From positions 1-64,000 of the forward strand of contig CBFGKC010000007.1 in the NCBI GenBank assembly GCA_965649265.1: 64,000 nucleotides of DNA. The letters are read 5' to 3'. Numbering within the stretch: position 1 is the first letter of the stretch; every line of letters starts with the position of its first letter. Source of the DNA: a candidate division WOR-3 bacterium (GTDB taxonomy: Bacteria > Hydrothermota > Tepidihabitantia > B3-TA06). A program made the translations under genes and the position numbers. A model generated the notes under the pieces. It was not told the DNA's origin and did no database searches. It saw nothing but the letters and a program-made list of their open reading frames with translations. Below are positions 11,880 to 56,806 of this stretch, one piece after another.

Positions 11880-12002
11880 TGCCACCCCCCTCAGAACCAC
11901 CTCTGCCCTGTTTAGAATAATATTTCCCCCTCCTTGATGGACAGCGTGCCCCTTGGGGTGCCTGCGCCCCATAGGGTAGGGGGGAGGGGGCGGTGAGACT
12001 CC
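11880..12002. repeat. Cluster of C/G-tract REP-like palindromes
   Basis: AGGGGGGAGGGGG is the inverse of CCCCCTCCCCCCT at ~13224. Confidence 0.5.
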
Positions 12003-12065
12003 AAAAAAAGAATTATATACCTCTTGATTTTTTACACCCACAGCGTAACATAATCCCCAGGAGGA

Positions 12066-13214
12066 ATGAAAATGAGCGACGAAAAGAACGAAGAGAAGAT
12101 GCAAATAAACCCACCGGATCGTGCGACGGACATGCCCCGGTTTATTGAAGAAATTGCCAATGCACTTACGCGTAAATCCTCAGCATTAAGAACAATATTT
12201 GATGGCCTCTTGGAGGAATTGGACGAATTCAGTTCAGATTTCTCTTTGTCGTATTTCACTCCTCGGGGAACGACTTGGGTAGATGGTCCATATGTAACAC
12301 AACTAGAACAAAACATAAATGAAGGAATGAAAAAGGTTGCATCTAAACTAATTAACCTTAACTATGCAGAAAGTTTCATAGATAGATGGATTGAATACTA
12401 CTCTGAAAAACGTAGGAACTATGATGTTGATATGTGGGTGCTTGATTTTATCGAAGACTTAGTAGAAGATAATTTTCTGGAATTAAAAGAACGCGGTCTT
12501 ACACAGGAAAAGGCCAATTTTATAAACAAAGTGAAGAAGGGTGCATTAGCTGGAAGTAATTATGAAAACCCTTCGATTTTAGACGAAGTGGCTCGTATTC
12601 TACTAAACATACCATTTTACATGGAAGATGGTCAAGATATTAAGGTCCGCGCTACCGCAATTAGAGTATACTCTCAACGTTTTACAGAAATTGAAAAATC
12701 TCTCAGTGAACTTAAAGAATTGAAAAAGAATATGGAGAATTTAAGAGGGAAAACGTCTGTAGAACTTAGCAGGCTAAAACGTAATAGCGAGATTTTAACC
12801 CGAAGAGTAGAGCAGACCTCTCAAGAAATAGAACGACGTTTTCTCAGGAATTCTGTGCAAATCATCGGCATATTTGCTGCGATAATTGCGTTTGTCGTTG
12901 CAGTTGTCCCTGCTGCAATTCGACTAGGCGGATCGAGCATACCGATTATTGGTTCTGGTTTGGCGATTGTACTTGCTGGGTTTCTATTCCTGATCGCTGT
13001 CGTGTTTGGTGATGAAAATCGCATCAAGCGCTTTCGCGGGTGGCTAATTGGTTCCGGTATTGCCCTAACAATTTGGCTTCTTGTCTCGATTGGTGCAAGC
13101 GTCTTATGGCGTGACATTGTTGCCCCGCCACCTGATGCGGCAAGGGTGGATACGGTCTACAAGTTCCAGTCAAGGGTTGACACCCTTTACATCGACACAA
13201 CAACGAGCGAGTAA
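12066..13214 (+). CDS. Low-GC hypothetical protein with coiled coil and three C-terminal TM helices
   Basis: 382-aa ORF with GGAGG SD; AT-rich codons; SVQIIGIFAAIIAF TM block. Confidence 0.75.
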   Translation: MKMSDEKNEEKMQINPPDRATDMPRFIEEIANALTRKSSALRTIFDGLLEELDEFSSDFSLSYFTPRGTTWVDGPYVTQLEQNINEGMKKVASKLINLNYAESFIDRWIEYYSEKRRNYDVDMWVLDFIEDLVEDNFLELKERGLTQEKANFINKVKKGALAGSNYENPSILDEVARILLNIPFYMEDGQDIKVRATAIRVYSQRFTEIEKSLSELKELKKNMENLRGKTSVELSRLKRNSEILTRRVEQTSQEIERRFLRNSVQIIGIFAAIIAFVVAVVPAAIRLGGSSIPIIGSGLAIVLAGFLFLIAVVFGDENRIKRFRGWLIGSGIALTIWLLVSIGASVLWRDIVAPPPDAARVDTVYKFQSRVDTLYIDTTTSE

Positions 13215-13215
13215 A

Positions 13216-13253
13216 GTCCCCCTCCCCCTCCCCCCTCCACCAGGGAGGGGGAC
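13216..13253. repeat. REP-like palindrome (family also at 56242-56277, inverted)
   Basis: CCCCCTCCACCAGGGAGGGGGAC nearly matches the reverse complement of 56242-56277. Confidence 0.7.
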
Positions 13254-13969: not shown

Positions 13970-15537
<1,568 letters not shown>

Positions 15538-15624: not shown

Positions 15625-15640
15625 ACCCTCTCCCCCCTCC

Positions 15641-15678
15641 GTCATTGCGAGCAAGGCTTTGCCTTGCGTGGCAATCTC
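15641..15678. repeat. GTCATTGCGAG...GCAATCTC REP-like element
   Basis: Same family as 54594-54633 and 56159-56235. Confidence 0.7.
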
Positions 15679-15742: not shown

Positions 15743-16396
15743 ATGGCTTGGGCTATCATCGGTGAATGGCTTTATGCATACATTCCTTTGATAGGTGGAA
15801 TCGGCGGAATCGTGGGCTGCATAACAGCAATTGTCGCCTCCGTGCTGCTCTGGAAAACCTTGAAGGAAACCCGCAAACAAACCCAGCTCGGATACAAAGG
15901 CGTGTTGGGGGTTTCACCCGGAACTGATGTAAATTTTCAATTGGAATTCGAATCGAAGGAAAAATTAAAACAAATAACAGTTACCTATAAATTCATTCAA
16001 AACAATAGTGCGATACTGCTATTAAGAGTCAGGGAATGGTTATTTGATGAAAGAGAAAAAATCGATGTCGACAGTTGGTACGAGCAATTAAAGCCTAAAC
16101 TCAAAGAAAAAATCCTGACACCGGTCATTCCTAATCAAGAATTTGGTTTTTTTAAGGAAGCCCTTGAAAGCACTAAGAAATTCTACTCTCTATTTTCTGA
16201 GGGTAATAGAAATGCAAATAACAGGTTTTATGTTCATGGTATTTTTGCTTACGAAGATCTCACTCATGATATTTATTGGATATATATTCGTTGGAGTTTG
16301 AATTTGTCGGTAATAGGACATCCGGGGCAAGAAGATTTGAAAATAAATTCCTTCAGTAATCAAGAAGAGTACCGATTCCTTACACCGTTTCGATAA
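15743..16396 (+). CDS. Low-GC hypothetical protein with N-terminal TM anchor
   Basis: 217-aa ORF, AT-rich, with its own promoter. Confidence 0.7.
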   Translation: MAWAIIGEWLYAYIPLIGGIGGIVGCITAIVASVLLWKTLKETRKQTQLGYKGVLGVSPGTDVNFQLEFESKEKLKQITVTYKFIQNNSAILLLRVREWLFDEREKIDVDSWYEQLKPKLKEKILTPVIPNQEFGFFKEALESTKKFYSLFSEGNRNANNRFYVHGIFAYEDLTHDIYWIYIRWSLNLSVIGHPGQEDLKINSFSNQEEYRFLTPFR

Positions 16397-16435
16397 ACAA
16401 AGGTTCGTAAGAGTCCCACCCACAACACCTTCTGC

Positions 16436-16772
16436 GTCATTCTGAGGACACGTAGCCTCCGGGGGAGGCATGGGCTTAAGCTTCGCTTAAGCATACTACT
16501 GTAAATTAAAGGTAGCGTCCGTGAGTCCGAAGGCCGACGCTTACGGAGCAATCGCCTGAGTATAGGCAATTGCTTCATACCGCCCAAGGCGGCTTTCCGA
16601 AGGTGAGCGCTTCGAGCGACTAGTTCGGCCCATGCGCCTTACAGGCGCTAAATCCCCCCTACCCCCCTTAATAAAGGGGGCCTTCACCCTCACCCTACCC
16701 TCTCCCGATGGGAGAGGACAAACAATTCCCCTCCCCCTCCGGGGGAGGGTGGCGAAGCCGGGTGAGGGCAGG
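16436..16772. repeat. Mosaic cluster of REP-like palindromes
   Basis: GAGCAATCGCCT..AGGCAATTGCTTC, CCTCTCCCGATGGGAGAGG and GGGTGAGGGCAG, shared with 56159-56620 and 27602-27632. Confidence 0.75.
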
Positions 16773-16871: not shown

Positions 16872-17003
16872 GGGGTCCCCAAAAGAATGATTCCAGCATT
16901 CTTTTGGGGTAGGAAAAACCCCTGTTTTGACCATCTTTTGACCATCTTCTGACCATCTTTTGTCCAGCTTTTTTTTGCCCGAAATGTCCAACTTTTGTCC
17001 ATA
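16872..17003 (+). repeat. GGGGTCCCC hairpin plus 11-bp tandem array TTTTG(A/T)CCATC
   Basis: Hairpin 16872-16910; four units 16925-16968 and degenerate units to 17003. Confidence 0.8.
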
Positions 17004-27562: not shown

Positions 27563-27980
27563 GGGGTCCCCGCAAGCATACGGAGTAGGCTTGTGGGGTG
27601 GAATCCCCCCTCCCCCCCTTAATAAGGGAGGCGCTGACGCGTCCATTAATCCAGCCCGACCGCCCAGAGGACGGTTTGAAGTTTTCCCTTACCTTTTTGA
27701 TTTGAAGGAAAACTTCTGAACGACTTTCCCGGAAAGTCGTCGGGGTCCCCAAAGGAGTGCCTCCGGCAATCCTTTGGGGTGATCTTTTACCCTATAATCA
27801 CCCGAAAAAGGCCGAAAATGACTAAAAATCGTCTTTCATGTTTTTTGGCTCCTAACTGACCAATATGTGCAATTTACCTGCGATTTACCCCTCTTTTTGG
27901 CCATTTTTTTGTCCATCTTTTGTCCCACTTTTGTCCAGCTTTTTTTTAAGCCCCGGAGAGCCTCCGGCATTCTTTCGGGA
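27563..27980 (+). repeat. Composite repeat module: two GGGGTCCCC hairpins, C-tract palindrome and 11-bp array
   Basis: Hairpins 27563-27599 and 27742-27780; 27602-27632 matches 16651-16681; 11-mers 27895-27939. Confidence 0.8.
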
Positions 27981-44813: not shown

Positions 44814-44901
44814 AGCGCCGGAGGCGCATGAGCAGAATCTTAAGAGATTCTGCTATCTTATTATTTCTGATTCAGGACAGCGCCGGAGGCGCATGAGCAG
44901 A
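44814..44901. repeat. Two 23-bp direct repeats AGCGCCGGAGGCGCATGAGCAGA inside nested inverted repeats
   Basis: Copies at 44814-44836 and 44879-44901. Confidence 0.8.
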
Positions 44902-54418: not shown

Positions 54419-54498
54419 GGGGTCCCCGTAAGAGCGCGCAGCGATCTTGTGGGGTGTAAAATTAAGTAGGACAAAAGATGGTCAAAAGATGGACAAAA
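54419..54498 (+). repeat. GGGGTCCCC hairpin plus inverted 11-bp array
   Basis: Hairpin 54419-54455; three GATGG(A/T)CAAAA-type units 54467-54498. Confidence 0.75.
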
Positions 54499-54642
54499 CG
54501 GCAAATTTGCCCTCCAAAATGACTGAAATTCAGGGCAGATTTCAAAGCGCCGCCATGAGCGGCGGTAGGTTTTCTGGGGGGTAAAACCGAAATTGTCTTT
54601 GCGAGAGTCGCTGCTAGCGACCGAAGCAATCGCCTAAATCCT

Positions 54643-56100
54643 TTATGGAAGCTTTTCCTTGATGGCTGAGATTATTCTGTTTCCATCTTCTTCATTCAGA
54701 CTTGTTTTACACCATTCTTCCGCAAGTATTTCCCAAACGGCTTGTTTACTCTTCACAATTTTATTTCCTAAAGATTCTGTCCATTTGTGATGATTTGGTT
54801 GGAGTATACATTCATCGAGATCTTGGAATAAAGTTCCAGCCCCTATACCAAAACGTTCATTAAGAGATGACCAATTCTGCTGTTTTAAGCTCTCAAAAAC
54901 AACCCTCTCTGGAGCTTTATTGCCAGGCAAAGAAACTAACCCTTCATGAGGTGTATCACCATCAGTGATTGCCATTGAATTGTAAGGCAATCTGTTTTTT
55001 GAAGCTAACTCACCCATGGTGTTAACTACATTCGCCCCACCAATAGGCACGATGTCTATCCTTGGGAGCAAGGTTTGTCCTTGTTCGTTGTTTGCGAGAA
55101 TCGCTCTCAGAAGAATTTTTGATTCTAAATCTTCCACAAAAACATGTAACTCTGGATAGGTTGCTGAGTCTAATCTGCTTAACGCGAATTCAGAACTTGC
55201 CCCGTATACTATATTCATCTTGTCTTTACCTGGTTCTCTTCCTGGCAAAAGTAGAACTTTAGCTTCCTCAGGCAATTCTTCGAAAACATAAGAGCTATGT
55301 GTGGAAATAATGAATTGAACTTTATTTATTCTGCTGAACCAAAGCAGAAATTGAACAAGTCGCCTTTGTGCCTTAGGGTGTAAGGAAGCTTCAAGTTCGT
55401 CAATAATAACAAGAGAAGTAGGTGGAATAAGTTGAAGGCTTCGTATTAGATCTAAAGTCGAATCTTCGCCTGCACCTTGATGGAACTGCGAGATTTCGCC
55501 GAACCCCCTCGTGAGTAAACCTACTTCCTTTTTTTTGTCTAAATCTGTGGTCGCGAATCGTGCATTCAAATACTCCCGTCCTAATATACTTGAAAGTCGC
55601 TTTCTGAACTCAGGTAATATTTCTGTCGTTGAGGTTTCCTTAGACGCATAGTAAGCTATTTTCGGATAACCTACAGTTGCATCAAGCGGTAACGTACGGG
55701 CAACATCGAAAAAAAATACCGCGCGTTTGACTCGGCTTTCCGGAAATGCCCAACGCTCAGTATGTTTTTTTATTTCAAAGCTCCTTACATCCTGACCTTG
55801 ACGGACCCGATATTCCAAAGACAATTTTGAAATGTCATCCCATTGTGTTTTGATGAAAAATTTCGCTGGATAAAATGTTTTCCGTGATTTTTCATCTTGT
55901 TCATAAGCACATGCGGCTACTTTTAGTAATGTACTTTTGCCAGTTCCATTTTCACCAACAATTGCCGTAACGGGAAAGCGGAAATTAACAGTTTCACCTA
56001 ACCATCCTCTTAACCCATTTATTGATATTGATTCAAGAAACTTCGGCCACTGGCCTGCTAAGTGTTGTTTGTGTATCTTGTCTATTTCTTCGTAATCCAT
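54643..56100 (-). CDS. OLD-family-like ATP-dependent nuclease (ABC ATPase + TOPRIM)
   Basis: GENGTGKST, QGAGE, IIDELEASLHP, ISTHS, VFVED, TDGD; AGGAGG before ATG 56100. Confidence 0.85.
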   Translation of the reverse strand: MDYEEIDKIHKQHLAGQWPKFLESISINGLRGWLGETVNFRFPVTAIVGENGTGKSTLLKVAACAYEQDEKSRKTFYPAKFFIKTQWDDISKLSLEYRVRQGQDVRSFEIKKHTERWAFPESRVKRAVFFFDVARTLPLDATVGYPKIAYYASKETSTTEILPEFRKRLSSILGREYLNARFATTDLDKKKEVGLLTRGFGEISQFHQGAGEDSTLDLIRSLQLIPPTSLVIIDELEASLHPKAQRRLVQFLLWFSRINKVQFIISTHSSYVFEELPEEAKVLLLPGREPGKDKMNIVYGASSEFALSRLDSATYPELHVFVEDLESKILLRAILANNEQGQTLLPRIDIVPIGGANVVNTMGELASKNRLPYNSMAITDGDTPHEGLVSLPGNKAPERVVFESLKQQNWSSLNERFGIGAGTLFQDLDECILQPNHHKWTESLGNKIVKSKQAVWEILAEEWCKTSLNEEDGNRIISAIKEKLP

Positions 56101-56122
56101 CAGATACCTCCTATAAGAATGA

Positions 56123-56150
56123 ATCATAAGCCTTTTATTAGGAATGTCAA
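56123..56150 (-). promoter_or_regulatory. sigma70-like promoter of the ATPase-TOPRIM gene
   Basis: TTGACA-16bp-TATGAT. Confidence 0.7.
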
Positions 56151-56241
56151 TGGTATTTGCGATTGCTTCGGTCACTCGGCGCTCTTGCGGAAGGTACTTC
56201 CGCCCATGCGCCCCTGGCGCTCCCTCGCAATGACAGTAAAG

Positions 56242-56656
56242 GTCCCCCTCCCTAGTGGAGGGGGAAGGGGGCGGGGAGCAAGTTAGCGACCAAGGGGTCG
56301 CATTGGTCGAACTCACGTTCGACAGATAGCTGCAGAATCTGAGGGAGCGCCCCCCGGGGGGCCAACAAGCTCTCAGCAATTTTGTTAGAGATCTCTTTTG
56401 CCCCGCCTCCCTTATGAAGGGAGGTGACCGGAGGTCGGAGGGATCTTCGATTTCTGATCCCCCTCCCCCATCGAGGGGGAGGAATCCCTCACCTCTAACT
56501 CCTCTCCCGAAGGGCGAGGAGAACTATATACCCTCCTCCGCTCCGGGATGAGGATGTGTTACGGGACCTCTCCCATCGGGAGAGGGTGACGATCTAGAAG
56601 ATCGTCGGGTGAGGGCAGCGGGGTCCCCAAGCGGGCGCTTTGCGATCGCCTGGAGT
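56242..56656. repeat. Mosaic cluster of REP-like palindromes ending in a GGGGTCCCC hairpin
   Basis: CCTCCCTTATGAAGGGAGG, CCTCTCCCATCGGGAGAGG, GGGTGAGGGCAG, hairpin 56620-56656. Confidence 0.75.
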
Positions 56657-56730: not shown

Positions 56731-56806
56731 GGGCGATTAGCTCAGCTTTGGTTAGAGTACTTGCTTGACATGCAAGGGGTCAAAGGTTCGAATCCTTTAT
56801 CGCCCA
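56731..56806 (+). tRNA. tRNA-Val(GAC); CCA not encoded
   Basis: GGGCGAT..ATCGCCC-A; CTTGC-TTGACAT-GCAAG; GGTTCGAATCC. Confidence 0.95.

Follow-up and report, generated by a model that had tools for sequence, protein, structure and literature searches.

How does a gene with the marks of foreign DNA come to lie, together with its own promoter, between two inverted copies of a short palindrome? This question is raised by a locus in the 64-kb window (the whole stretch of DNA that was analysed, 64,000 nucleotides), where a gene for a predicted ABC-ATPase-TOPRIM protein is enclosed in this way. A sequence-only reading of the window had taken the locus for a defence-like cassette bounded by REPs, with an empty-site counterpart near 16.5 kb. 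It had proposed that such repeat pairs are ends or insertion sites for exchangeable cargo genes mobilised in trans. Papers given here by a PMC number are cited for the parts of their text that were accessible.

The gene and its enclosing repeat pair

The coordinates of the locus and of related sites are collected in Table 1. The arms at 54619-54633 and 56159-56173 form a perfect 15-bp inverted repeat, exactly where the sequence-only reading had placed it. No other perfect inverted repeat of at least 15 bp in the window has its arms at a distance of 100-2000 bp, and 10 dinucleotide-type shuffles of the window yielded none. The outer inverted repeat was reproduced as well, with an 11/12 match between 54594-54605 and 56224-56235. 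The 15-mer common to both units is absent from every other repeat copy in the window. The units are not identical (40 and 77 bp), and the ATPase-TOPRIM gene with its own promoter is the sole content between them. A gap of 9 nt separates the stop codon from the left inverted repeat, and one of 58 nt the start codon from the right one. The predicted promoter (56150-56123) is situated 8 nt interior to the right repeat, i.e. between the pair. With margins of this size, the tight enclosure of a low-GC gene and its promoter by one palindrome family, as it had been described, is borne out.

On both flanks of the pair, at least three other repeat families form mosaics. The elements of the left array recur at about 16.9 kb and 27.9 kb, and similar mosaics flank the 16S rRNA gene and other genes in the window. 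A terminator-like hairpin (56265-56243) lies on the strand of the ATPase gene, upstream of the right unit. The neighbours of the gene are DUF59 on one side and tRNA-Val and a CT398-like gene on the other. A tRNA-integrated island was rejected, as no duplicated (att-like) end of tRNA-Val was found. An 11-bp-period tandem repeat (TTTTGACCATC-like) was observed at 16925-17000, 27890-27947 and 54469-54498, each time near a GGGGTCCCC hairpin. Such arrays presumably resemble recombinase arm-type binding arrays; the 64-kb window contains no integrase.

Table 1. Positions of the gene, the repeat units and related features in the window.
Feature	Position	Strand	Remarks
Stand-alone low-GC3 gene 12066-13214 with its bounding inverted repeats	11978..13236	+	other, G/C-run repeat family
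Canonical single unit of the repeat family enclosing the ATPase gene	15640..15676	+	upstream of the promoter of gene 15743-16396
Degenerate paralogous dimer, 6-nt spacer	16435..16649		right half homologous to 56159-56235, outer head lost
Left mosaic array beyond the pair	54419..54498		GGGGTCCCC-type hairpin 54419-54454 and 11-bp tandem repeats 54469-54498
Left repeat unit	54594..54633	+	TGTC tag and TTTGCGAG head outside; internal hairpin; tail GAAGCAATCGC faces the 3' end of the ATPase-TOPRIM gene
Predicted ABC-ATPase-TOPRIM gene, 485 aa	54643..56100	-	HEC-04-like sister subfamily
Ribosome-binding site AGGAGG	56107..56112	-	
Sigma-70-type promoter-like site TTGACA-16-TATGAT	56123..56150	-	consensus match only, 11/12
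Right repeat unit, long-loop variant	56159..56235	-	nested hairpins; tag outside, tail towards promoter
Right mosaic array beyond the pair	56243..56640		several CCCTCCC/CCCTCTCCC hairpins and GGGGTCCCC motif
tRNA-Val(GAC)	56731..56806	+	downstream of the right array

HEC-04 likeness and foreign character of the gene

The sequence-only reading had pointed to a search with defence-system models. When PADLOC was run on the protein, the top model was HEC-04 (E 1e-59, residues 6-408), and the runner-up model stood at 3e-21. The score against the HEC-04 model was 200 bits over profile positions 11-407 of 494, whereas core members from plasmids reach 626-716 bits. The identity to a core HEC-04 protein is about 30%, with the acidic TOPRIM motifs aligned and the alignment reaching residue 419. 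These values point to a sister subfamily of HEC-04. The motifs recognised are Walker A (K55), the signature QGAGE (208-212), Walker B (D234/E235), H268 and the TOPRIM residues E323/D380/D382. Of these, K55, E323, D380 and D382 are invariant in 27/27 aligned sequences. They correspond to K62, E319, D375 and D377, the Walker A lysine and the metal-binding residues of the tested HEC-04 protein (bioRxiv 10.1101/2024.01.29.577857). Judged by its sequence, the protein is a member of this sister subfamily with its catalytic residues intact.

The predicted structure of the 485-aa protein has a pLDDT of 80.9, and its top Foldseek match is the OLD nuclease 6p74 (range 21-485, Z 16.0, rmsd 7.6, 319 aligned), with both domains covered. 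The model also aligns across both domains with the retron Eco8 effector and GajA. An ABC ATPase fused to a C-terminal TOPRIM in one gene is thus indicated by the motifs and by the two-domain structural alignment. Pfam gave no TOPRIM match in the 485-aa protein, and the C-terminal domain folded alone from the single sequence reached a pLDDT of 37.7 and was unusable. Gabija consists of GajA next to GajB, a UvrD-like helicase. Since no helicase is present among the neighbours, Gabija was rejected; the GajA models match only the Walker B stretch.

HEC-04 is a validated single-gene defence system (bioRxiv 10.1101/2024.01.29.577857). The single gene, the size, the domain order, the Walker A lysine and the E..DxD motif are all shared with it. 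In contrast to HEC-04, the gene here is stand-alone and not inside a Hma system. Anti-phage activity may be expected from kinship with a family that is about 30% identical. By analogy with the proposal for HEC-04, the ABC ATPase would sense a phage product or a nucleotide change and would then activate the fused TOPRIM nuclease.

The GC content of the gene is 0.398 against 0.508 for the window, and its GC3 of 0.315 is the lowest among the 57 protein genes of the window. Together with the HEC-04 match, the lowest GC3 supports the earlier description of a foreign-looking, defence-like ATPase-TOPRIM gene. The search for relatives returned 797 matches among 8000 scored candidates. The best 119 of the 797 are 53-62% identical and come from cyanobacteria, myxobacteria, proteobacteria, Bacillota and others. 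The closest relatives are 60-62% identical; the named ones among the matches listed are from Nostoc and Cylindrospermum, followed by Myxococcus, Variovorax and Cohnella. Among the matches listed, the range between 62% and 100% identity is empty. For the adjacent CT398-like protein, the best named match is from a WOR-3 bacterium (51%), and a 95% relative was seen on 14 contigs. Gene 12066-13214, too, has its named relatives in TA06 and WOR-3, so that a host from this lineage is likely; the contig is 182,906 bp long. The lack of a 62-100% relative of the ATPase, against the 95% one of its neighbour, is weak and indirect evidence that the ATPase gene is absent from close relatives. The gene is foreign-looking and was probably acquired horizontally.

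On plasmids, tblastn gave only 23-30% identical relatives among the best 30 of 271 records, and blastn with the whole repeat-bounded segment gave only short Walker A matches among the best 20 of 443 records. A split relative of the ATPase, annotated as two ATPase genes, was observed in the P2-like Burkholderia phage phiE094 (locus L120, 2328-5677). The integrase gene is its neighbour and a deaminase gene comes after it, a placement like that of accessory genes. Flanking inverted repeats were found around none of six distant relatives (five plasmid loci and the phage locus), which speaks against repeat ends as a property of the ATPase gene family.

The repeat family, the 16.5-kb dimer and other genomes

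A repeat unit consists of a TGTC or CGTC tag, a ATTGCGAG-type head, a variable hairpin and a GCAATC tail. The end tag, the palindromic stem, the short unpaired tail and the prevalence of inverted dimers are those of the CGTC class. The repeats flanking the ATPase gene are thus CGTC/TGTC-tagged palindromes and not the GTAG REPs of RAYT genes. The single palindrome family that had been recognised around the gene is real, and elsewhere it is tied to a GIY-YIG nuclease. The RAYT/GTAG-REP framing was given up, with tags of TGTC/CGTC and no Y1 transposase.

CGTC-tagged repeats occur mainly as inverted dimers, and DNA inserted between the two members of a dimer has been described; the accessible part of the same source found no CGTC units flanking a tyrosine transposase (PMC3733652). 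The loops are 4-5 nt there, with exceptions noted, whereas the units here have loops of 17 and 54 nt with nested hairpins. The locus resembles these CGTC dimers and the dRS3-NIME arrays (PMC1797815) in its CGTC/TGTC tag, in dimers as the main form and in mosaic arrays beside variable genes. It differs from them in that a 1.5-kb spacer holds a whole gene and its promoter. Gene insertion mediated by neisserial dRS3 arrays has been hypothesised (PMC1797815). CGTC-tagged repeats have been tied to small GIY-YIG nucleases, SsnA, whose cut in single-stranded DNA falls a few bases 5' of the repeat tag; in the accessible text, cutting is demonstrated and joining is not (PMC11893778). The degenerate SRM pattern in that text gives 0 matches on either strand of the window. 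Formal SRM membership therefore fails, because the pattern has no match to the long-loop units. The NTS/SRM-ssnA-NTS/SRM units (PMC11893778) are similar in that inverted tagged palindromes enclose one gene. The head/tail subfamily of the present pair also adjoins GIY-YIG genes in three GTDB loci (L058, L077 and L020). On the other hand, the enclosed gene here codes for a 485-aa defence-like nuclease and there for a GIY-YIG protein of about 100 aa.

Neither a mobiliser gene nor a Y1 tyrosine transposase was found among the 60 ORFs and 79 intergenic frames of the window. A GIY-YIG (ssnA) gene is absent from the 64-kb window and no integrase Pfam match occurs in it. The RAYT or GIY-YIG gene to which the sequence-only reading had looked is thus missing from the 64 kb. 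The REPtron (RAYT/TnpA-REP with GTAG REPs; PMC3333891) is alike in having one gene between palindromic repeats; it was rejected, as there is neither a GTAG tag nor a Y1 tyrosine transposase. IMU-type MITE-bounded elements (PMC3184786) likewise carry non-autonomous repeats on either side of passenger genes. In contrast to them, the two units of the present locus differ from each other, with lengths of 40 and 77 bp, and no target-site duplication abuts both outer ends; a MITE-bounded composite transposon was set aside on the latter point. The longest words shared at the outer ends are 5 nt, and GTAAA abuts the right end and lies 8 nt from the left one. The accessible parts of PMC3390384 and PMC3337134 contain nothing on REP-bounded cargo.

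At 16.5 kb, a gap of 6 nt separates inner ends that point towards each other (16546-16576), as had been noticed. The unit 16564-16649 aligns with the right unit of the pair at a score of 36, which was reached by 1 of 1000 shuffles. Therefore, the relationship seen by the sequence-only reading is real. The two ends of the pair match the two halves of this dimer type. The head of the left half is another one, CGTCATTCTGAG at 16435, and this half resembles the left unit of the pair only weakly, at a score that 21 of 1000 shuffles also reach; the right inner end differs at 3 of 13 positions from that of the pair. The shared tail is partly upheld: the right unit is homologous, but the GCCCATGCGCC..GGCGCT module is also present at about 44833 and 44898 without tagged ends. 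At 44815-44900, two direct copies of a GC[CT]CATGCGCC-N-GGCGCT hairpin module were observed between a SpoIIAA-like gene and tyrS. The genes adjoining the 16.5-kb dimer are unrelated to the neighbours of the ATPase gene. An empty allele was rejected on these other neighbours, the different left head and the lost right outer head, and because short dimers are the usual state of the repeat (63 of 65 in the survey below). What lies there is a short dimer of the usual kind, decayed and from the same subfamily, which is paralogous to the pair and not its empty counterpart.

A head-and-tail pattern scan of GTDB gave at least 119 loci, 80 of them with flanks and from many phyla. The other 39 of the 119 have 300-bp flanks only and were excluded from the counts of dimer spacers and of ORFs bounded by inverted repeats. 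No locus titled WOR-3 or TA06 is among the GTDB matches listed. The 80 flanked loci contain 179 units, against 1 in shuffled DNA. In these loci, 63 of 65 adjacent tags-out pairs have spacers of at most 120 bp; because L023 and L024 overlap, the 63 include two short dimers twice, and the duplicate interval was dropped from the interval-GC analysis. The two long pairs hold a GIY-YIG gene (L058) and lemA/TPM genes at host GC (L054), and close to the anchor unit of L054 lies a degenerate partner. None of the 80 loci has defence-like cargo between tags-out pairs, which speaks against exchangeable cargo as a property of the repeat family.

A full GIY-YIG gene lies beside the repeat in the same three loci, 3 of the 80 with flanks, and partial GIY-YIG matches were obtained in 2 of the 39 short-flank loci. 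In L058, from Mucilaginibacter, a unit, the GIY-YIG gene and an inverted unit follow one another with the tags outside. The margins are 48 nt upstream and 17 nt downstream of the gene, against 58 and 9 at the ATPase locus, i.e. the same geometry. In the Nostocales loci L077 (4145-7400) and L020 (4453-5045), a low-GC GIY-YIG gene was observed between repeat dimers; in L077, a 747-aa ATPase gene between further units comes after it. The intervals between other successive units have host-level GC, except two GIY-YIG intervals and one of higher GC. PADLOC models are matched at 1e-10 by 4 of 65 ORFs between successive units. Inverted repeats of at least 13 bp bound 3 of 540 ORFs in the GTDB loci and 0 of the 18 low-GC ones. 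The plasmid copies of the repeat (6 of 7 examined) are short dimers or singles, and no gene-containing tags-out pair is present among these 6 copies. In L071 (95-247, Omnitrophota), three head-to-tail units with a TCTTTGCGAG head and a CCGAAGCAATCGC tail were observed; they are tandem, not inverted, and very like the left unit of the pair. Nostoc is a frequent carrier of the subfamily (L001, L020, L031, L032, L048 and others) and also the source of the closest named ATPase relatives among the matches listed. No ATPase relative is found inside any of the at least 119 GTDB repeat loci.

Entry of the gene into the repeat pair

The composition of other genes in the window bears on how regular the arrangement is. 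Two of the 16 stand-alone genes in the window have a perfect inverted flank match of at least 13 bp within 150-bp flanks, and the others have 6-9 bp. These two, 54643-56100 and 12066-13214, rank 1 and 2 for low GC3, an outcome of 1 in 120 for ranks 1 and 2 of 16 that was calculated post hoc. In a stricter BLAST test, repeats were counted on both sides of the ATPase gene only (p about 0.05-0.06, n=1). The inverted repeat of gene 12066-13214 is a 13-bp perfect match between 11978-11990 and 13224-13236, with 25-nt arms that are 80% complementary. The 13-mer is a low-complexity G run of a family distinct from that at the ATPase locus. The inverted pair that bounds this gene is of CCCCTCCCC type and starts 4 nt past its stop. 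By eye, its 382-aa product has a coiled-coil-like middle and C-terminal hydrophobic helices. It has 17 relatives, the named ones from TA06/WOR-3, and no Pfam or PADLOC match; it is a lineage-type membrane protein. Gene 15743-16396 has the third-lowest GC3, with a repeat unit upstream and the 16.5-kb cluster downstream.

The account that we consider the most probable, with modest confidence, is that the HEC-04-like gene was captured once in the spacer of a CGTC/TGTC dimer, within the mosaic array upstream of tRNA-Val. The nuclease gene and its promoter would either have inserted into the spacer between the halves of a dimer that forms hairpins and is prone to breaks, or have replaced the GIY-YIG gene in a repeat-ssnA-repeat unit. 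Surplus DNA would have been trimmed away afterwards. The repeats would then mark a recombination-prone landing site rather than demonstrated reusable cassette ends. Against a single capture, the exact fit, with gene and promoter only, and the second low-GC3 gene between inverted repeats look more regular than an accident. Such regularity would be natural if the repeat pairs, cut in trans by an SsnA-like GIY-YIG nuclease, were reusable and served single exchangeable genes as ends or as landing pads. Since SsnA is reported to cut a few bases 5' of the tag (PMC11893778), a tags-out pair would receive its nicks beyond the two ends and on opposite strands, and the geometry of the locus is identical to that of the repeat-GIY-YIG-repeat unit in L058. 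The GC3 ranks of the two bounded genes, and the position of gene 15743-16396 between a unit and the 16.5-kb cluster, agree with this. There are also precedents: 7 E. coli strains have precisely lost the tnpA-REP that lay between REPs (PMC3333891), and gene insertion by dRS3 arrays was suggested in the hypothesis cited above. With the hicAB replacement in E. coli, the BIMEs on the flanks disappeared as well (PMC3333891). We nevertheless regard reusable cassettes as unlikely. The survey gave no defence-like cargo in tags-out pairs of 80 loci, few bounded ORFs and none of low GC, and the six distant ATPase relatives have no flanking inverted repeats. The stricter BLAST test counts the ATPase gene alone, and the second gene is bounded by a G run of another family, with WOR-3/TA06 relatives and no defence match. 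SsnA cuts DNA and is not demonstrated to join it, and the analysis revealed neither a mobiliser in the window nor an empty allele nor a further cargo of this repeat. A broader version, in which palindrome pairs of several families serve as ends for single accessory genes, defence nucleases among them, in a WOR-3-type lineage and a domesticated SsnA-like GIY-YIG nuclease moves or swaps these genes in trans, is similarly doubtful; because the GTDB sample is small and comes from other lineages, it leaves room for such a lineage-specific habit.

It is possible, if not probable, that the order of events was the reverse, i.e. that the gene arrived by an unrelated route and the repeats settled later in insertion-tolerant DNA beside a dispensable gene. 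The mosaic flanks, with similar mosaics at the 16S rRNA gene and other genes, would fit such an accumulation. REPs commonly occur near the 3' ends of the genes upstream of them (PMC3733652), and elsewhere the genes between successive units are mostly at host GC, with 4 of 65 matching PADLOC. However, the two units share a perfect 15-mer that is unique in the window, and they face inward like the halves of a dimer, the common form of the repeat. Moreover, the GC3 of the ATPase gene is unameliorated, and therefore little time would have been left for two independent single insertions. A role in expression is very improbable. The downstream unit would serve as a 3' hairpin of the mRNA, and the upstream array would insulate a toxic gene from read-through. 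HEC-04 is indeed toxic when induced in E. coli (bioRxiv 10.1101/2024.01.29.577857), the left unit begins just past the stop codon, and the terminator-like hairpin lies upstream of the right unit. On the other hand, the folding of the left and right units is only marginally better than that of shuffles (z -1.7 and -1.8), and the origin of the repeat pair is left unexplained.

Every component of the locus has a known relative. What appears to be new is a defence-like gene inside a CGTC-type dimer; the idea of repeat-mediated insertion itself is older (PMC1797815). No report of a REP-bounded defence cassette or of a defence gene inside a CGTC-type dimer was found in the open-access literature. 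The function of CGTC-type repeats and their GIY-YIG partners is open outside Neisseria (PMC11893778). Repeat-mediated insertion could be tested cleanly on this locus, as a defence-like gene occupies the place that the nuclease gene has in repeat-ssnA-repeat units. The protein marks a large, cross-phylum sister subfamily of HEC-04. If palindrome pairs were generic ends, they would make up a cassette system that works without an integrase, and CGTC repeats would have a definite task. If the cassette idea fails, what remains is a defence gene of the ordinary kind that stands alone in intergenic DNA rich in repeats.

Gene 15743-16396 lies directly after the 16S rRNA gene, and its 217-aa product has an N-terminal hydrophobic stretch. 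It has 21 relatives, none named, and no family was assigned. Atlas searches with this gene and with gene 12066-13214 gave only unnamed or low-share clusters. The Rfam scan of the window returned only the 16S rRNA and tRNAs, and no tRNA or 23S gene follows the 16S rRNA gene in the window. The 16S rRNA gene itself (13970-15536) stands alone, with repeat arrays and low-GC genes on both sides.
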